The notes under the pieces: model-generated
Seen by the model: only the letters and a program-made list of their open reading frames with translations
What the model was told of the DNA's origin: nothing
Databases searched by the model: none
Translations under genes and position numbers: made by a program
Shown here: positions 1-33,765 of the stretch, piece after piece
Layout: every line of letters starts with the position of its first letter
Position numbering within the stretch: the stretch's first letter is position 1
Origin: an uncultured Clostridium sp.
GTDB taxonomy: Bacteria; Bacillota; Clostridia; Ch29
Reading direction: 5' to 3'
DNA: 64,000 nucleotides
NCBI GenBank assembly: GCA_964529035.1
Contig: CAZGUG010000002.1
Span: 19,241-83,240, forward strand

Positions 1-1485
1 ACTTTTACAGGTAATATAGGGCCAGATGTATGGGTTGATCACAGGAACTCTTCCTATGTTGACCAAAATGGAAGGGCTCTTTCCCTGGTAAACCGAGCCA
101 ATGAATCCATGGTTGGTGACAATGTGGTCAGCGGCAAAGTGGTGGCCTGGCCCATAGAGCGGCCTGAGCCGCAGATGTCAGATAATCCGCGGACTATTCA
201 TGTACCTGGCGATTATGCATCTATCCAGGCTGCTATCGATAGTTCAAAAAATGGAGATACCATCATTGTAGCGCCGGGAACTTACAATGAAAGCATTGAT
301 TTTCGGGGTAAGCATATCACTGTCAGGAGCCAGGATCCCCTGGATAAATCTATAGTATCGTCTACAGTGATTAATGGTGGTAATCCTGATGCACCTGATG
401 ATGGTCAGGGACCCATTGTTATGTTTTTGAACGGTGAAGGTCGAGATGCTGTTTTAGAAGGCTTTACCATCTACAACCGGGACAGAGACTTCTTCAACAT
501 GTCTGCTGTATACCTTTCAGGTGCTAGTCCCACTATCCGTAATAATATAATTACCAGTGAACGTGGAACCGGAATTTTAATGAACTGGGCCTATACAAAG
601 CTATACGTTCCAGAACAACAAGAAGACGAAGGTAGATTTACTCCACAGCTTGGCATGGAGACGGCACCTTTACTGGAGAATAATACAATCCGAGACTGTA
701 CCGTTGGTGGTGGAATGTGGTACTACTATGCATCACCAGAAATAATCGAGAACAAGTTTATCAATAACGATGGACCGTTGTCTGGAGCAGTACACAACTG
801 GTTCTCCAGTGCGACCATTAAAGACAATGAATTTGTTGGTAATAAAGGGCACAATGGAGGGGCTATACATTACGAAAACTATAGTGTGGTACTAATAGAA
901 GGAAACTCTTTTAAGGATAATGTTGTAAATGGTTTGGGTGGTGCAATTTATATTGACAGCAACACTTATGGGACAATTGACAGTAATGTGTTCATAGGCA
1001 ATCATGCCCAGAATGGAAGTGCTGTTGCCATTGGCCATGCTGATATAGAATTAACTAACAATGTGATTGCAGAAAATTACGGTTGGGCGTTGTTTGTAGG
1101 TGGAAAAGCCCGGGTAAACAACAACACCTTTGCTAATAATTACGGCGATACGCACGGTGAGGGGATATTTGTCATGGATGGTAAGGTTGAGGGAGTAAAT
1201 AATATCTTTTACAACAATGAACTGAATGTGTGGGAAGGCGAAGGTGGCGGAGAAATTAATCTTACCGATAGTCTGTTCTATAATAAAGATAGAAAATCAT
1301 GGCCGGGTAAAGGCAATCGATTGGCGGATCCATCTTTCATGGGTGAAGGTGACTACCGACTGCGATTCGGATCGAAGGCAATTGATGCTGGTGTTGAAGT
1401 TGATTTGAAAGTAGATATTATTGGAACTCCTAGACCCCAGGGACGGGGATATGACATTGGTGCTTATGAGTTTCTAGTGCCATAA
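1..1485 (+). CDS. Right-handed parallel beta-helix repeat protein (pectate-lyase/NosD-like fold), 5' end truncated by the window edge
   Basis: The frame stays open from position 1 with no stop upstream of the first ATG at 109. Repeated Gly/Asn-rich ~22-aa units (NNxI, GxxGxGI) are typical of beta-helix proteins. Stop codon at 1483-1485. Confidence 0.6.
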   Translation, partial: TFTGNIGPDVWVDHRNSSYVDQNGRALSLVNRANESMVGDNVVSGKVVAWPIERPEPQMSDNPRTIHVPGDYASIQAAIDSSKNGDTIIVAPGTYNESIDFRGKHITVRSQDPLDKSIVSSTVINGGNPDAPDDGQGPIVMFLNGEGRDAVLEGFTIYNRDRDFFNMSAVYLSGASPTIRNNIITSERGTGILMNWAYTKLYVPEQQEDEGRFTPQLGMETAPLLENNTIRDCTVGGGMWYYYASPEIIENKFINNDGPLSGAVHNWFSSATIKDNEFVGNKGHNGGAIHYENYSVVLIEGNSFKDNVVNGLGGAIYIDSNTYGTIDSNVFIGNHAQNGSAVAIGHADIELTNNVIAENYGWALFVGGKARVNNNTFANNYGDTHGEGIFVMDGKVEGVNNIFYNNELNVWEGEGGGEINLTDSLFYNKDRKSWPGKGNRLADPSFMGEGDYRLRFGSKAIDAGVEVDLKVDIIGTPRPQGRGYDIGAYEFLVP

Positions 1486-1612
1486 CCTGGAGAATAATTG
1501 GGTGTGTATTTGTATAGGCTGTAGGCCATAGAACAGGGGATGGTTCTCTGTTTGATAATGCCCCACCGGTATTACTATATATAACGTGATAAGGACTTTA
1601 CATCTTCTAGCG

Positions 1613-1639
1613 TGTCATCCTGAGCGAAGCGAAGGATCT
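1613..1639. repeat. 27-bp perfect inverted repeat, left copy (tgtcatcctgagcgaagcgaaggatct); partner at 3176-3202
   Basis: The reverse complement of 1613-1639 equals 3176-3202 exactly. The left copy carries an internal direct sub-repeat gcgaagcgaagga/gcgaagcgaaaga. Confidence 0.85.
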
Positions 1640-1809
1640 TGCGAAGCGAAAGATTTTTCGGAAGGCAAAATAAAGATTCTTCAGTCGTTCCTCCTTCAGG
1701 ATGACACATCTTATGTAACTTTATTAACACCTTATATATAGGTATACCCGTTAAAATAATGGATATATATGAAAGAGCAAAAAAAGAGATCCAAATATAA
1801 TACCGATAA

Positions 1810-1988
1810 AAAGGTAGTGGCAATGAAATCTCACTGCTCGACATACTGGGCACCGACTGTGATACGGCCTCTCCAACGGCACTATAAAGACCCAGCTGGA
1901 GATAGACCAGATGCTGGGCATTTCCAGGTCCTATGCTTCCAGGATTGAAAAGAGGGACATTAAAAAACTGAGCAGGGAAAACATATAG
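1810..1988 (+). pseudogene. sigK: sigK (sporulation sigma-K) 3' remnant: region-3/4-like fragments with a frameshift and a ~100-nt internal deletion
   Basis: Frame 1 (1810-1884) reads KGSGNEISLLDILGTDCDTASPTAL*, close to B. subtilis SigK ...KEGNEISLIDVLKSE. Frame 0 (1863-1988) reads YGLSNGTIKTQLEIDQMLGISRSYASRIEKRDIKKLSRENI*, matching SigK region 4.2 ([36 protein letters not shown]). The region 4.1 codons expected between the two fragments are missing. In-frame stop codons lie immediately 5' of nt 1810. Confidence 0.5.
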
Positions 1989-2016
1989 AACAGCTGTAAA
2001 GTAGCAGTTGTTCTAT
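1985..2016. terminator. Bidirectional hairpin terminator shared by the sigK remnant (+) and the EamA gene (-)
   Basis: The stem atagaacagctg / cagttgttctat has one mismatch around an 8-nt loop. T-rich tracts follow it on both strands. It overlaps both stop codons. Confidence 0.5.
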
Positions 2017-2933
2017 ATGTTTTCTGCGGAATTATCCTTGCTTTTGAGCATGTTTATTATGATTACCGCTATTATTATCATTGTGATGCCGAAAAACTGG
2101 AGTGGCGTCAGTATTTCTCTGAGAAGTATAACACCCAGGGCAACGCTTACCACCGGCTCGAAGGTACATAATATGGCGGCTCTTGAGGAGCTGGTTTCCC
2201 TTATTCCGGCAAAGAACAGCAGGTTTGACAAAAAGGTTGAAAAGATAGCGCTGGCCAGTATCGCTGCCCAGGCCTTTGGCGTCACGGACCACTGCAGGTT
2301 TCCGGTTACAAGGGCCGCAGCCATAAGTGTTACCGTGGCCGCAGTGGTGATGTATGTGGTGACGGTAAGAGAATCCATAGTACTAAGGTTTTCTGAGAAC
2401 CTGCTGCCCAGTAGTATTAGATGGGTGCTGAAGGAAAGGCACGCGCCGAAGGCCAGCAGAATGCCGAAGGTATTAAACTGTGAGACCGGCGACCATACCA
2501 TGAGGACACAGCCGACCGTTGCCATTATCAGTGCAAAGAGCTGCTTTGGGACCATTCTTTCCTTCAGTACTCTTACCATGAACAGGTTCACTATGACAGG
2601 GTACAGGTAAAAAATTACCGATGCGAGGGATACGGGAATATAGTTTATAGAATTGTAGTAAACAATAGAAAACCCCGCGTATACAATCCCTCCTATTATA
2701 AACAGAGTCTTGAGCTGTGCCCTGGAGGCATGTACTTTTTGCCGGCCTCCCGATGCAAGGCTGTATCCCCACAGGAGTGTCGATGCGATAAGGAACCTCA
2801 TGGCCAGTACAAACATGGGGTTTGCGCCTTCGTTGTAGGCCGTCTTGGATATTACCACGTTTATACCATAAAAAAAAGCCGCCAGTATAACAAGGGTGTT
2901 GCCCTTCTTTTTCATGTTGGCATTATCCTCCAT
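2013..2933 (-). CDS. EamA/DMT-superfamily transporter (10 transmembrane segments)
   Basis: 306 aa, highly hydrophobic. The two EamA half-domains are recognisable (N-terminal FFYGINVVISK..., second half AAILASAIFSTFLSNLLFFAGIRE). Confidence 0.75.
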   Translation of the reverse strand: MEDNANMKKKGNTLVILAAFFYGINVVISKTAYNEGANPMFVLAMRFLIASTLLWGYSLASGGRQKVHASRAQLKTLFIIGGIVYAGFSIVYYNSINYIPVSLASVIFYLYPVIVNLFMVRVLKERMVPKQLFALIMATVGCVLMVWSPVSQFNTFGILLAFGACLSFSTHLILLGSRFSENLSTMDSLTVTTYITTAATVTLMAAALVTGNLQWSVTPKAWAAILASAIFSTFLSNLLFFAGIRETSSSRAAILCTFEPVVSVALGVILLREILTPLQFFGITMIIIAVIIINMLKSKDNSAENI

Positions 2934-3175
2934 AACCGGTATTTGTCATCCATATCTATTCTACTACATCTGTATGTGTTTGTGGACTGCTTTTTTATTG
3001 ATCTGCCGGTTTAGGCAGAAGAACTGTGGGTCTAAACAAAAGACTTAACTTTAGCATATGATATATCGGGTAATGCCGCAGTATGCGGCGGCAGGTTAAT
3101 AAAACAGCTTATTATATAAGGGGACTGCTGAGAAAATAAGTTCTTTGCTTTTCATTTTGAAACGAAAAAGCTTAA

Positions 3176-3202
3176 AGATCCTTCGCTTCGCTCAGGATGA
3201 CA
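3176..3202. repeat. 27-bp perfect inverted repeat, right copy (agatccttcgcttcgctcaggatgaca)
   Basis: Exact reverse complement of 1613-1639. It is followed directly by a tandem array. Confidence 0.85.
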
Positions 3203-3848: not shown

Positions 3849-4592
3849 ATGTCAGTAAGAAATATTGTCAAAATTAACGAGGAAAAATGCAACGGCTGCG
3901 GTCTGTGCATACCGAATTGTGCAGAAGGAGCCCTTCAGATAATTGACGGCAAGGCAGAGCTTGTCAGCGATAAGTACTGTGACGGACTTGGAGCCTGCTT
4001 GGGGACATGCCCGATGGATGCCATAGAGATTATAAAAAGGGAAGCGGACGATTTTGATGAGCAGACGGTTGAACAGTATCTTGAATCGAAACAAAATCAT
4101 GATAAAGAACCAAAGACCGGAGGCTGTCCCGGCAGCAGGATTGTGTCCCTGAAGGAAAGGGAAACGGCAGATTTTGAGCAGCAGCCGGAAGATATTGAAG
4201 TTTCGATACGTCCACAGTTGGCCCAGTGGCCGGTACAGTTAAAGCTTGTTCCGGTTCAGGCGCCGTATTTTAACGGCACTAATCTGCTGGTGACCGCCGA
4301 TTGTGTTCCCTTTGCCTACGCCGATTATCACCTTGGACTTTTGAAGGGTAAAAGTGTTGTGGTGGGATGTCCAAAGCTAGACGACAATAATTACTACACG
4401 GAAAAACTTACCGAAATAATAAAGAATAATGATATAAGAAAAGTCACTGTTGCATATATGGAAGTGCCGTGCTGCGGTGGTATTGTAAGGGCGGTGGATA
4501 CCGCAATAAAAAACTCGGGGAAAGATATTCCTATTGCACTTGTGGAAATTTGCATAGACGGACGAATAAAAGGAAAAATCGAAACAAAGTAA
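3849..4592 (+). CDS. 4Fe-4S dicluster (ferredoxin-type) domain protein with a Cys-rich C-terminal domain
   Basis: The N-terminus has CNGCGLCIPNC ... CDGLGACLGTCP, two CxxCxxCxxxCP-like motifs. The C-terminal domain carries GCPKL and VPCCGG cysteines. Confidence 0.55.
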   Translation: MSVRNIVKINEEKCNGCGLCIPNCAEGALQIIDGKAELVSDKYCDGLGACLGTCPMDAIEIIKREADDFDEQTVEQYLESKQNHDKEPKTGGCPGSRIVSLKERETADFEQQPEDIEVSIRPQLAQWPVQLKLVPVQAPYFNGTNLLVTADCVPFAYADYHLGLLKGKSVVVGCPKLDDNNYYTEKLTEIIKNNDIRKVTVAYMEVPCCGGIVRAVDTAIKNSGKDIPIALVEICIDGRIKGKIETK

Positions 4593-5395: not shown

Positions 5396-7099
5396 GTGGG
5401 GGTGGGAAGCGTGCATTATAAAAGCAGAAAAAGACTGGGCAGCATTCTATTGGATATTGGGCGAATAAGCCGGGAGCAGCTGGAGTACGCGCTTAAGCTT
5501 CAAAAAGACAGGGGAGATAAGCTCGGGAAGATTCTTGTGGATGAGGGCATCATATCCGAAGCCGAGGTTATTGAGATATTGGAGTACCAGCTTGGCATAC
5601 CCCATGTTATGTTGGACAAGTACTATATAGACCCGGGAATTGTAAACATAGTGCCTGAGGGTCTGGCCAGAAAATACTGCCTCATACCCATTCAGAAACA
5701 CAGCAATGTTCTTGTGGTGGCAATGAAAGATCCCTTAAATATATATGCGATAGACGAAGTCAAGCTTGTGTCGGATTTGGATATACAGCCGGCTATTGCA
5801 TCGGAGGACGATATTAATTCAGCAATAGAGATGTATTACGGCAAACAGGTAGCCGAGAAAGCTGTGGAGGAATTTACCAGGGAACATAAAATAGAAAGTC
5901 TAATTGAGAATGAGAAACAGCTGCTGGAACAGGTTAACAATGCACCGGTTGTGAGGTTGGTTAATTCAATAATTGAGCAGGCGGTAGTTAACCGGGCCAG
6001 TGATATACATATAGAACCGGGCAGCAGCAAGCTGAGGGTCAGGTTCAGGATAGACGGCCAGCTGCAGGAAATGATGAACGTTTCAATGCAAACCCATGGT
6101 CCGGTTGCAGCCAGGATAAAAATTATGAGCCAACTTAATATAGCCGAAAGAAGAATACCGCAGGACGGAAGGGTAGATCTCGGCATGGGAGGAAAGCACC
6201 TGGACCTTAGGGTATCGGTACTTCCCACAGTTTATGGAGAAAAGATAGTAATAAGGGTCCTGGACAGGGGTAGGTTTTTGTTATCCAGCGAACAGCTGGG
6301 CTTAAGCAGGGAAAATGAAAGGATGTTTAACGAGCTGCTGAAGCTTCCCCATGGTATTGTTCTTGTCACCGGCCCTACCGGGAGCGGTAAAACCACTACG
6401 CTTTATGCCGCCCTGAGGGAACTGAACAAACCTTCGGTTAATATCATAACGCTGGAGGATCCGGTAGAGTACAAACTGGAAGGGATAAACCAAATGCAGA
6501 TTAATCCCAGGGCAGGCCTTACTTTTGCTGTGGGTTTAAGATCGGTATTAAGACAGGACCCAAACATTATAATGGTTGGGGAAATAAGGGACGAAGAGAC
6601 TGCGAATCTGGCGGTCAGGGCAGCTATAACTGGGCACCTGGTATTCTCCACACTGCACACAAACGATGCAGCCAGTTCAGTGGTAAGGCTTATTGACATG
6701 GGTGTTGAGCCATACCTGGCCGCCTCTTCAATAAGGGGAGTAATTTCACAGCGCCTTATAAGGAAGATTTGTCCCGGGTGTAAAGCCGGGTATAAAGCCA
6801 CACAGCAGGGACTGGACATACTTGGATATCCTTCGGACAGCAAGGTGGAGGTATATAAAGGAAAAGGCTGCGGCAGCTGTCATAAAACGGGATACAGGGG
6901 CAGGATTGCGGTTCATGAAATAATGCTTATTACAGAAAAACACAGGGAGCTGATAGGACAGAGGGTTTCTTCCGACAAACTGAAAAAAGTTTCGTGTAAA
7001 GCCGGAATGACAAGCCTTCGGGAAAGCTGTTCTGATCTTGTTTTAAAGGGGATTACAACGATTGATGAAATGTCCAAGGTCGTATATATGCAGGAATAA
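5396..7099 (+). CDS. pilB: Type IV pilus assembly ATPase PilB (GspE family)
   Basis: N-terminal GspE-N/MshEN domain, Walker A GPTGSGKTTTLYAAL, tetracysteine CPGCK...CGSCHKTG. The true start may be GTG 5411. Confidence 0.85.
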   Translation: MGVGSVHYKSRKRLGSILLDIGRISREQLEYALKLQKDRGDKLGKILVDEGIISEAEVIEILEYQLGIPHVMLDKYYIDPGIVNIVPEGLARKYCLIPIQKHSNVLVVAMKDPLNIYAIDEVKLVSDLDIQPAIASEDDINSAIEMYYGKQVAEKAVEEFTREHKIESLIENEKQLLEQVNNAPVVRLVNSIIEQAVVNRASDIHIEPGSSKLRVRFRIDGQLQEMMNVSMQTHGPVAARIKIMSQLNIAERRIPQDGRVDLGMGGKHLDLRVSVLPTVYGEKIVIRVLDRGRFLLSSEQLGLSRENERMFNELLKLPHGIVLVTGPTGSGKTTTLYAALRELNKPSVNIITLEDPVEYKLEGINQMQINPRAGLTFAVGLRSVLRQDPNIIMVGEIRDEETANLAVRAAITGHLVFSTLHTNDAASSVVRLIDMGVEPYLAASSIRGVISQRLIRKICPGCKAGYKATQQGLDILGYPSDSKVEVYKGKGCGSCHKTGYRGRIAVHEIMLITEKHRELIGQRVSSDKLKKVSCKAGMTSLRESCSDLVLKGITTIDEMSKVVYMQE

Positions 7100-9907: not shown

Positions 9908-10654
9908 ATGCAGTATGCGGTTTCCTTTATACTAGGCCTTGTAATTGGCAGTTTTTTAAACGTATGCATACACAGGATTCCTAGTGGAAAATCTGTGGCA
10001 TTTTCCCCTTCCTGCTGCCCGGACTGCGGCGAAAGGATCAGAATGCGGCATATGGTGCCGATTGTAAGCTATATATTACTCGGGGGCAGATGCAGCTGCT
10101 GCAGAATAAAGATTTCACTGAAATATCCACTGGTGGAGCTTTTGACAGGGGTTCTGTTTGTTTTATTGATGTATCGGTTTGGCCCCGGTATGGAGTTTTA
10201 TAAGTACTCATTCCTTTTATCTTTGCTAACTGCTGCAGGGTTTATTGACTTTGAACATCAGATTATTCCGGATATTTTGGTAATTGCCGGTATTACTGCC
10301 GGGACAGGCTTTATGTTTATTGATATGAGACATCCTCATATCTTCTATATAGCGGGAGGTTTGCTGGGAGGCGGTGTACTGCTTGCTGTTGACCTTGTTT
10401 CAAGGGGTGGAATGGGAGGCGGAGATATAAAGCTTATGACGGTGATTGGTTTGTTCCTGGGCTGGCAGAGCACACTGCTGGTTTTGTATCTGGCATTTGT
10501 TACCGGCGGTATGGCCGGCGTGTTGATGCTTGTTTCAGGCAGAAAGAACAGAAAGGATGCAGTCCCCTTTGGACCTTTTATCGGAGGGGCGTCGGTTGCC
10601 GCGGTGTTTTTTGGACATCAATTAACAGCCCGATATCTGTCATTTTTTTACTAA
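9908..10654 (+). CDS. pilD: Prepilin peptidase PilD (A24 family)
   Basis: N-terminal zinc-binding CPDC...CSCC, a polytopic membrane protein, and a catalytic Asp in GGGDIKLM. Confidence 0.85.
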   Translation: MQYAVSFILGLVIGSFLNVCIHRIPSGKSVAFSPSCCPDCGERIRMRHMVPIVSYILLGGRCSCCRIKISLKYPLVELLTGVLFVLLMYRFGPGMEFYKYSFLLSLLTAAGFIDFEHQIIPDILVIAGITAGTGFMFIDMRHPHIFYIAGGLLGGGVLLAVDLVSRGGMGGGDIKLMTVIGLFLGWQSTLLVLYLAFVTGGMAGVLMLVSGRKNRKDAVPFGPFIGGASVAAVFFGHQLTARYLSFFY

Positions 10655-10660
10655 TACGGG

Positions 10661-11122
10661 GTGATTATGATGAAAACAAACCGCAGCACCGGACTGACTA
10701 TATTGGAACTGCTGACGGTTATGCTCATTATATCAATAGCTTCAGCGGTAGCGGTACCAGCGGTCAATGCGGCATTGGAAAGGGCCGCCGGGAATGCGGC
10801 ATTAAGAGAGCTGGTTACAGATTTGAGGTACGCACAGCAGATGGCCCTCTCAGATGGCAGTAATTATTATATTACGTTCAATAAAAGCATGCAGACATAT
10901 ACAATAAGCGTAGCGGGACAATTTGATCAGGAAATTATTAAGCAGGTGACGTTACCGGATGGTATTAAGCTGCTTGGGACAAATTTCGCAAACAATAAAC
11001 TTTACTACACTGATTTGGGATCTCCATCGGCGGGCGGCAGGATAGAGCTTTCGGATAGAAAGGGTAAGGTAATAAAAATTACAGTTCTTCCTGCTACCGG
11101 AAGGATCAGGGTGTATGAATGA
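10661..11122 (+). CDS. Minor pilin / pseudopilin (FimT/GspH-like)
   Basis: Class III signal: G followed by LTILELLTVMLII. Confidence 0.6.
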   Translation: MIMMKTNRSTGLTILELLTVMLIISIASAVAVPAVNAALERAAGNAALRELVTDLRYAQQMALSDGSNYYITFNKSMQTYTISVAGQFDQEIIKQVTLPDGIKLLGTNFANNKLYYTDLGSPSAGGRIELSDRKGKVIKITVLPATGRIRVYE

Positions 11123-33133: not shown

Positions 33134-33162
33134 TTGAAGGTAGGATGCCGTCATGTTATAAT
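33134..33162 (+). promoter_or_regulatory. Consensus sigma-A promoter with extended -10 driving the non-coding region
   Basis: TTGAAG (33134-33139), a 17-nt spacer, then TGtTATAAT (33154-33162). Confidence 0.55.
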
Positions 33163-33169
33163 ATGTTCA

Positions 33170-33765
33170 TAGTTGGTGGTGCAGTATTCTAGTCAGACGT
33201 TTCGCTTCTGAAGGCGGGGCTAAAAATCCGTCAAAAGGCACATCGATGAAGTTCCTTGTGTTGGCTTCTGACGCCCAGTTGGGGGCTTTCTCAGGGAGTA
33301 AAGAGGTGGGGGCGATCTGCAACGGCATGCAGGCGTTGACCCTCCCTCTGCGGAGACCCGAAACCTGATATCAGGTTGGGTAAAAACCTGCAGATAAAAC
33401 CTGCAGCGTAGCCTGCCTTGAGTGAGATAGGCGGATGATTGTCAGGCTAATTCCGAAGGGCCCTTCGGAAGATGCCAATGCTTTCGAAACCTATTTTGCA
33501 AAAGAGGCTAAGAAACGGGACCGATGTCGAGGAAAACTCCTAGACTGTTCCAACGGAGGCATATTGGGGATTAGGGTGCGGACTAAGTGGTAATCCAGCC
33601 CTATCGATGGTAACACGATAGAGACGGGTTTAAAGGGAAACCGCTAACCTGGCGACAGGATAGTATCCGCCTGGGAAAGCCTGCTGGACCTAAGCCGCAA
33701 AATTTACTCATTATGCTGCCACCGCGAACTTTTGCTGATAGTTTATACTATCAGCTTTTTAATTG
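33170..33765 (+). ncRNA. ole: Candidate OLE (ornate large extremophilic) RNA
   Basis: A ~700-nt ORF-free, GC-balanced interval with many perfect local hairpins (aacctgatatcaggtt, ttccgaagggcccttcggaa, gctgatagt..actatcagc). It has its own promoter and terminator. Its position between ispA/PAP2 and a small four-TM membrane gene plus dxs-tlyA-nadK-argR-recN matches the published ole-oapA neighbourhood as I recall it. Confidence 0.7.

Follow-up and report, generated by a model that had tools for sequence, protein, structure and literature searches.

A displaced, decaying 3' end of sigK in an uncultured Clostridium sp., a likely scar of gene-preserving insertion at the clostridial sigK core

We analysed a stretch of 64,000 nucleotides (nt) from an uncultured Clostridium sp. 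(assembly GCA_964529035.1, contig CAZGUG010000002.1, positions 19,241 to 83,240), hereafter called the window, near whose left end a preliminary description of the sequence had noticed a degraded 3' end of the sporulation sigma factor gene sigK and had compared it to the junction of a skin element. The window is 99.985% identical to the JGI contig Ga0334897_000083 and 100% identical to a contig from ENA. Our analysis revealed that the fragment is the original 3' end of sigK, that an intact copy of the gene lies 34 kb to its left, and that the fragment is likely to be the scar of an insertion that left the gene whole. The features around the fragment are listed in Table 1.

Two reading frames give sigma-K-like peptides, as had been described. 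Frame 1 reads KGSGNEISLLDILGTD over positions 1810-1857 and runs on as ...GTDCDT up to 1866; when the three forward frames of 1486-2010 were read, its wider context was I-stop-YR-stop-KGSGNEISLLDILGTDCDT. Frame 3 reads YGLSNGTIKTQLEIDQMLGISRSYASRIEKRDIKKLSRENI over 1863-1988, with a stop codon at 1986-1988. In a tblastn search of the window with the closest full-length SigK protein (P0026), residues 142-157 matched at 16 of 16 and residues 191-229 at 35 of 39 positions (combined E = 4e-18), and B. subtilis SigK aligned with its residues 140-152 and 188-226 (E = 3e-7). The C-terminal piece has a Pfam Sigma70_r4 match just under the curated cut-off. No sigK-like sequence besides 1819-1988 was found by tblastn with SigK across the 64 kb, in line with the earlier statement that nothing sigma-like is encoded in 1486-1809. 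The start of similarity had been placed at 1810; alignments to intact sigK genes move it to 1819 (GGCAATGAAAT), the preceding 'KGS' codons being part of a non-sigK arm that is described below.

The remnant lacks codons 1-141 and 158-190 and carries a +1 frameshift. The loss of region 4.1 (codons 158-190) and the shift of frame, both of which had been noted correctly, result from one and the same event, a repeat-mediated deletion of 103 nt (34 codons plus 1 nt) between two GATACGG repeats. Furthermore, six residues that are invariant in the approximately 40 closest SigK relatives are replaced in the 41 codons of region 4.2 (R>L, A>D, V>A, A>D, F>N, L>I), and these replacements together with the deletion bear out the decay that had been proposed. 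Compared to the intact sigK of the same genome, to which the nucleotide identity is 82-92% with the terminator included, there are 6 amino acid (aa) changes per 21 nt differences, while functional sigK copies differ by 1-10 aa changes per 30-52 nt differences, one comparison of such copies giving 1 aa change per 31 nt differences. The remnant thus combines the truncation, frameshift and relaxed constraint versus functional orthologues by which pseudogenes are recognized. It is base-for-base identical, deletion and frameshift included, in at least nine independent assemblies (JGI, ENA and Logan; three pipelines) and is therefore not an assembly error, a possibility that had been raised for positions 1845-1865. 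Positions 1819-1988 are a decaying sigK pseudogene, the displaced original 3' end of the gene, and are today without coding function.

The gene order to the right of the remnant is ancestral. The closest GTDB species representative, a Clostridiales metagenome-assembled genome (L011; PilB 70% identical), encodes an intact sigK of 231-241 codons in the order U32 peptidase, penicillin-binding protein (PBP), sigK, EamA (convergent), SodC, Fer4 protein, HAD and PilB, and the order from sigK through EamA, SodC, Fer4 and HAD to PilB is also found in two further species (L098-L103; L172-L173). From the remnant rightward the window keeps this order, the DNA left of the remnant is foreign to the locus, and the break in gene order falls inside sigK. 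Specifically, window positions 1856-2985 show unbroken nucleotide homology to L098 that extends into EamA (78.5% identity). Since relatives carry an intact sigK at exactly the same place, the fragment represents the ancestral 3' end of the gene, and its earlier description as a genuine sigK terminus was correct. In relatives, each sigK 3' copy is followed by a homologous hairpin, and the copies of the sigK 3' segment all come to an end shortly beyond this terminator hairpin, with different DNA after it. In the window, a strong hairpin overlaps the stop codons of both converging genes, as expected of the bidirectional terminator that had been suggested. A simple terminator scan did not call the hairpin at 1977-2024. 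It is probably such a terminator, and probably the sole part of the remnant that is still in use, terminating EamA transcription as well as read-through transcription.

Table 1. Features at the left end of the window (positions within the window; a dot marks features without strand).
Feature	Position	Strand	Remarks
Surface protein of ~1020 aa with SLH and right-handed beta-helix, 3' part of gene	1-1485	+	Last gene of the island; Pfam Beta_helix, NosD, DUF1565
MITE-like repeat unit	1565-1751	.	39-nt imperfect terminal inverted repeats; sits between the last island gene and the arm
64-nt non-sigK arm	1755-1818	+	Abuts the att-like core; holds the 'KGS' codons and two stop codons
Junction/core GGCAATGAAAT	1819-1829	+	sigK nt 424-434, codons 142-145 (G-N-E-I); first sigK-homologous base, from alignments to intact sigK genes
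sigK codons 142-157 (GNEISLLDILGTDCDT)	1819-1866	+	Original frame; 16/16 residues and 44/48 nt as in the intact sigK of the same genome
Deletion scar, single GATACGG	1861-1867	+	Intact gene has the repeat twice, at a distance of 103 nt; codons 158-190 gone, +1 frame
sigK codons 191-231 and TAG stop	1863-1988	+	Region 4.2 helix-turn-helix; shifted frame
Hairpin	1977-1996/2005-2024	.	20-21-bp stem, -34 kcal/mol, z = -7.7; overlaps the stops of remnant and EamA
EamA-family transporter	2013-2933	-	Pfam EamA; ancestral convergent neighbour of sigK; unchanged gene order begins here

The rest of sigK was located in contigs to the left of the window. A search with the SigK protein of L011 led to a tight clade of full-length SigK proteins, and the best matches of the remnant share the motifs GTDCDT and LSNGTIK. 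Two members, P0026 and P0024, are encoded in the sample series from which the window's contigs derive, ENA sample ERZ27252302 included. On their contigs, an intact sigK stands behind its ancestral upstream neighbours (YceG, methyltransferase, U32 peptidase, PBP), and downstream of it are MarR, ArsP, DUF2703, ArsR, ArsP, Fer4 and thioredoxin, then TetR, ABC and FtsX. The gap to the window was walked by a metagenome scan, a search with the large protein encoded upstream of the window and a chimeric query built from the two contig ends. This yielded a tiling path from L091/L104 through L142 and L139 to L140 and the window with overlaps that are 99.95-100% identical: 6,593 nt at 99.97% between L091/L104 and L142, 7,483 nt at 100% between L142 and L139, 12,604 nt at 99.99% between L139 and L140, 1,642 nt at 100% between L139 and the window, and 5,273 nt at 99.98% between L140 and the window. 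L142 and L140 derive from one sample. According to the tiling, the stop codon of the intact sigK and window position 1819 lie 34,196 nt apart on one molecule, so the large intervening stretch predicted to the left of the fragment does exist (34.2 kb up to the rest of sigK).

At the left border of this stretch, sigK is an open reading frame (ORF) complete in its 231 codons; it comprises regions 2 and 4 and has a 3' end and a terminator of its own, and its protein is 100% or 99.6% identical across many samples. The gene is therefore not split and no excision is needed, contrary to what had been proposed; no codon of the remnant is used. A functional sigK elsewhere had been offered as the alternative, and an intact copy does exist, but it stands at the left border of the same insertion. 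In the composite genome, the 3' segment of the intact gene (10424-10740) is the direct repeat partner of the window remnant with its hairpin (1819-2023), the two being 83-92% identical, and the remnant is redundant because the intact gene holds its own second copy from codon 142 to the terminator. The target gene is thus restored by a fragment belonging to the inserted DNA, while the native piece that it displaced stands at the opposite end as a direct repeat.

The left edge of the remnant falls on a known integration site. Phage PhiS63 of C. perfringens integrates into a sigK of 702 nt at the 10-nt core GTAATGAAAT, with 427 nt of the gene on the 5' side of it and 265 nt on the 3' side (PMC3442830). 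The skinCd and skinCt elements occupy a position similar to the PhiS63 site, whereas the skin of B. subtilis lies at a different sigK site (PMC3442830; also PMC5025042, PMC6957869), and clostridial sigK attB sites are located between the two Pfam domains of the gene (PMC7192596). The boundary in the window coincides with the PhiS63 attB core, the identity of the G-N-E-I crossover resting on the coordinates given in PMC3442830, and the skin-like character ascribed to the abrupt 5' edge is to this extent confirmed. Left of the core lies the 64-nt arm, and the stop codons reported immediately 5' of the fragment (1798-1800 and 1807-1809) are situated inside it. The arm is 92% identical over 65 nt to positions 12492-12556 of L152, a contig from a sister genome, where it occupies the same place before another sigK 3' remnant, and that displaced remnant starts at the same nucleotide as the one in the window. 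The insertion is thus placed at a specific att core inside sigK, with the start at nt 424 and an identical boundary in L152. As judged from the sequence, the junction in the window is laid out like an attR site at the clostridial sigK core, with a putative element arm, the core and the host 3' segment in succession.

Other accounts of this junction were considered. The arm might have been a longer and more degraded part of sigK, with frame 1 (GIPVKIMDIYERAKKEIQI) resembling CIENEILMTIRSNKKIQNQ; this was rejected since shuffled sequences were not beaten and the arm is conserved at the L152 junction. Local alignments of the arm to the sigK 5' part of four genomes with shuffle tests gave no significant similarity, apart from one unrelated position. 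Furthermore, the SigK C-terminal peptide matched two prophages in IMG/VR (L164, L165) that end in a sigK 3' part (5900-6285). They were rejected as insertions of the same type, because their junction is at the other AATGAAAT motif (E-N-E-I-L, ~codon 113) and of the classical splitting type. There are two AATGAAAT motifs in sigK, and both serve as junctions.

The repeat unit to the left of the arm resembles a miniature inverted-repeat transposable element (MITE). Its core GTCATCCTGAGCGAAGCGAAGGATC at 1614-1638 (+) has an exact 25-nt second copy at 3177-3201 (-), with 0 expected by chance. The unit was rejected as the cause of the truncation since the L152 junction shows the same boundary without it, and its absence from that equivalent junction marks it as a later, unrelated insertion. 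The 25-nt repeat also occurs at L114 15340-15366 and L098 11814-11849 and 13255-13282, and it translates into recurrent 'ILRFAQDD / VILSEAKDL' pseudo-peptides. One contig (L009; ENA ERZ27252296 k141_3863) switches abruptly to DNA with a high guanine-plus-cytosine (GC) content at a GTCATCCTGAGCG... repeat upstream of the equivalent of window position 1613. This contig is probably a chimeric assembly, and the repeat would therefore be common to an unrelated high-GC organism in the sample.

The gene for the large surface protein, of which the window contains the 3' part, is seen in full in L001, L002, L139 and L140, and no counterpart occurs at this position in the relatives with sigK-EamA adjacency. 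The inserted content is not prophage-like, and its GC content ranges from 0.38 to 0.59, compared to 0.42-0.48 in the flanks. A SpoIVCA-like large serine recombinase, for which a search had been recommended, was not found, nor was any other recombinase gene: the called genes of the 34 kb gave no Pfam hit to Resolvase, Recombinase, Phage_integrase or rve, and direct Pfam scans of unannotated ORFs in the same stretch gave no recombinase either. Neither sigK copy is accompanied by a large serine recombinase of the SpoIVCA/CD1231 type with a directionality factor, and the element does not encode an integrase of its own next to an attP. The island would at best be an integrase-less relic or a trans-mobilised unit. 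An HTH_17 (excisionase/MerR-like) protein of 63 aa (28 bits; L139 147-338), whose gene stands at the left edge of the island core and in L160 comes right behind sigK, may be what is left of a recombination module. Two pseudogenes in the island (L142 10001-10649 / L114 14554-14865), a methyltransferase split into ORFs of 49 and 180 aa and an ABC ATPase broken at a G-run, fit an old, decaying insertion. In a strain variant (L150 2378-3589, minus strand), the ABC pseudogene and the frameshifted methyltransferase are parted by an IS256-family (Transposase_mut) insertion. Another organism (L163) encodes a homologue of the 1358-aa protein of the island with no sigK remnant in the vicinity, and the surface-protein cluster is therefore regarded as cargo and not as an integration module.

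The window remnant is one of several. In the sister genome (L152-L155), which is ~95% identical in PBP and the sigK 5' part, an additional insertion of 7.7 kb encoding LysR, an aminotransferase, sulfur/selenium carriers, TetR, ABC and FtsX sits between the intact sigK and the counterpart of the sigK 3' end of the window's genome. The displaced remnant of L152 comprises 85 codons in a frame that is still open, with only two replacements at invariant residues, and L152 also holds a copy that consists of the terminator only. A third remnant is found in the window's own genome (L091 15535-15638), where codons ~208-231 and the terminator lie between two sub-islands, directly after the thioredoxin gene and 4.8 kb to the right of the intact sigK; it has no arm and is nearer to the L152 sigK 3' end (93%) than to that of its own genome (85%). 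The contigs that encode a further SigK (P0023; L156-L159) all stop ~70 nt past the sigK stop codon, as expected if several sigK 3' copies break the assembly graph.

Identities along sigK are likewise uneven. Among three genomes with ~92-95% identity in PBP, the sigK 5' part is 94-95% identical and the part past nt ~424 only 87.5-89%, which is no higher than the value for a species with 80% identity in the 5' part. The drop past nt ~424, with the 5' part staying at 94-95%, leads us to conclude that the region-4 cassette has been swapped. Between the composite genome and L156, sigK is identical from nt 628 on and 14% different in nt 429-627. The island core (HTH_17 protein, LuxR-type regulators, Zn-ribbon membrane proteins and more) directly follows sigK in another species. 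There it has 95% identity to the core in the window's genome, as against 76% for the flanking PBP/sigK; these values point clearly to a horizontal transfer of the core to the same site. In a further species, a LysR/selenium module follows sigK. The inserted DNA is absent from the same site in relatives, which show sigK-EamA adjacency (L011, L098-L103, L172). The locus is a variable, horizontally exchanged array of islands.

Elsewhere, the window carries a type IV pilus operon, intact spoIIIAA, spoIIIAE and spoIVB and an OLE RNA, which together assign the source to the endospore-forming Firmicutes. The OLE (ornate large extremophilic) RNA (Rfam RF01071, 501 bits) is full-length and located at 33160-33738 (+) in its usual isoprenoid/dxs neighbourhood. 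The intact SpoIIIAA, SpoIIIAE and SpoIVB indicate, by gene content, that the sigma-K pathway should be in use. The Fer4/AF_0155 gene to the right of the locus (3849-4592) is a single ORF of 247 aa in the window and likewise in ENA and Logan contigs; in the near-identical JGI contig L001 (8342-9085) it is called as two genes of 149 and 75 aa. Over 12.9 kb, the window and L001 differ by just 2 mismatches.

The best explanation of these observations, and one that we consider likely, is that the displaced sigK 3' end is the attR-like scar of a site-specific, gene-preserving island in a tandem, exchanged array. Most likely, DNA was inserted site-specifically at the sigK core G-N-E-I (GYAATGAAAT), as used by PhiS63. 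The incoming DNA would have carried, or soon acquired, a replacement sigK 3' cassette, and by this cassette the integration would have preserved the gene rather than splitting it. The arm at 1755-1818 would then be the conserved right end of the island. The recombinase would since have disappeared, the units having lost an integrase or never had one, and the island would now be an immobile, integrase-less relic. Later islands appear to have stacked up beside the intact gene, leaving more sigK 3' remnants behind and swapping the region-4 segment between lineages. Several observations weigh against this history. We infer the site-specific step from the junction position and the common arm alone, and the recombinase is likewise deduced and not seen: neither the 34 kb nor the extra island of L152 encodes an integrase, a large serine recombinase or a transposase, and we found no active relative of the island that bears an integrase. 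Arm plus core, taken as exact patterns of 36 nt and 22 nt, had 0 matches in IMG/VR, and a blastn search of 50,697 phage records with arm plus core yielded chance matches only. The boundary is not uniform over the copies, as the third remnant starts at ~codon 208 without an arm. The displaced remnant of L152 shows only 87% identity to its orthologue in the window's genome, against ~99% for the DNA to its right, a mismatch that requires extra recombination or gene conversion among copies. In addition, the whole evidence consists of metagenome assemblies of an uncultured lineage. A search for phages bearing an attP-borne sigK fragment gave none: tblastn of the C-terminal 90 aa of SigK against the phage records matched only unannotated faecal contigs at 50% identity or less.

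Much of this would also suit a history without a recombinase, in which the sigK 3' repeat of ~310 bp (codon 142 to terminator) has spread by homologous processes only, be it Campbell-type integration of circles, homology-facilitated illegitimate recombination after natural transformation or unequal crossing-over, and in which arm and boundary go back to a single junction that arose by accident and was copied. No island contains a recombinase gene, the patchy mosaicism within the repeat (composite genome versus L156) resembles homologous exchange or gene conversion, one remnant begins at ~codon 208 and one copy is reduced to the terminator, and type IV pilus and competence-like genes adjoin. 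We nevertheless regard such a history as rather unlikely, since the boundary coincides with the 10-nt PhiS63 core in a gene of 696 nt, for which a random breakpoint within a few nt has a chance of <~1%, two islands with different cargo carry the same 64-nt arm at that exact point, and new insertions are all located directly beside the intact gene.

The skin-type reading, in which the fragment would be the sole 3' half of a sigK formerly joined by developmental excision and now decayed, leaving no functional sigK at the locus, has become very improbable. It has in its favour the junction at the clostridial skin/PhiS63 site and the large segment intervening on the left. However, sigK at the left border is complete with 231 codons and followed by a terminator of its own, the 34 kb gave no recombinase, the remnant lacks region 4.1 and is frameshifted in every assembly, and the other sporulation genes are intact. 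Of the original skin-type interpretation, the sigK terminus, the separation to the left, the att-like edge and the decay stand, but the split gene and the recombinase do not. That the fragment is an artefact of assembly or sequencing, or a chance resemblance to a sigma helix-turn-helix, is scarcely credible. It is short and frameshifted, the data are metagenomic and a nearby ENA contig (L009) is chimeric, but at least nine assemblies from three pipelines agree in its sequence, it shares 82-92% of its nucleotides with the resident sigK, terminator included, and the neighbouring genes stand in conserved order.

Beyond this single locus, it is possible, and we propose it only tentatively, that a family of islands with a replacement 3' cassette behind the arm uses the skin/PhiS63 core, keeps sigK whole, forms tandem arrays and has region 4 shuffled between species. 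If true, there would be a gene-preserving counterpart, possibly an evolutionary precursor or descendant, of the gene-splitting skin elements, and one target site could switch between innocuous integration and regulated gene integrity. As a side effect, the region-4 segment of sigma-K, which recognizes the promoter -35 element, would be shuffled between species. sigK is the textbook example of gene splitting by a mobile element with reassembly through developmental excision, and here the same spot appears to take gene-sparing insertions. The locus also shows that horizontal exchange can reach the DNA-binding part of this key sporulation factor. The old 3' ends may be read as a dated fossil series, with the piece in the window as the oldest and most decayed and the 85-codon piece of the sister genome as the youngest, and could serve as a natural series for studying the origin of gene-splitting skin elements from harmless islands, or their decay into such islands. 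For annotation, a skin-like edge on a sigK 3' fragment does not imply a split gene, and the far border should be checked for a complete copy. Target-gene remnants at island borders and tandem arrays are already well known. sigK, by comparison, has hitherto been known solely as a gene that is inactivated by its elements, and our searches of the open-access literature gave no account of insertions at the clostridial sigK core that preserve the gene, nor of sigK 3' cassette exchange.

The locus described here shares its target gene, sigK, with skin, skinCd, skinCt and PhiS63. The attB of PhiS63 uses the same codons (G-N-E-I; core GYAATGAAAT) as the junction in the window, and skinCd and skinCt have a similar location (PMC3442830), while the B. 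subtilis skin is found at a site different from the one used here (PMC3442830, PMC6957869, PMC5025042). As in skin-type elements, tens of kb lie to the left of the sigK 3' segment, and an apparently element-derived arm abuts the core as in attR. Unlike them, the present locus does not show an interrupted sigK frame of which neither moiety is complete; the gene is uninterrupted, and at the left border the core continues into a complete second 3' segment. A large serine recombinase, a directionality factor to pair with it and prophage genes are all absent, sigma-K synthesis would proceed without excision, and the displaced 3' segment is a dead pseudogene.

Further parallels are offered by gene-preserving elements such as the islands in tRNA and transfer-messenger RNA (tmRNA) genes, in which the target is likewise restored by an element-borne fragment and the native piece becomes a direct repeat at the far end; gene-preserving integration is the usual strategy of integrative elements (Mageeney et al. 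2020, PMC7192596). Such islands also form tandem arrays beside the intact copy, are absent in relatives and are horizontally exchanged, as observed here. They differ from the present array, in which no unit encodes an integrase, the repeat comprises ~310 bp of coding sequence plus terminator and the target is a sporulation sigma factor. Integrase-less accretion arrays are represented by the cis-mobilizable elements (CIME) and ICESt at the fda 3' end in Streptococcus thermophilus and by the composite staphylococcal cassette chromosome (SCC) arrays at rlmH, in which decayed units without recombination genes are flanked by att-like repeats at the 3' end of a conserved gene and are arranged in tandem and variable between strains. 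The array at sigK resembles these in its decayed, integrase-less units, its att-like repeats and its tandem and variable arrangement. It differs in that no helper element was found and in that the repeat replaces 40% of the coding sequence of sigK, including the DNA-binding region 4.

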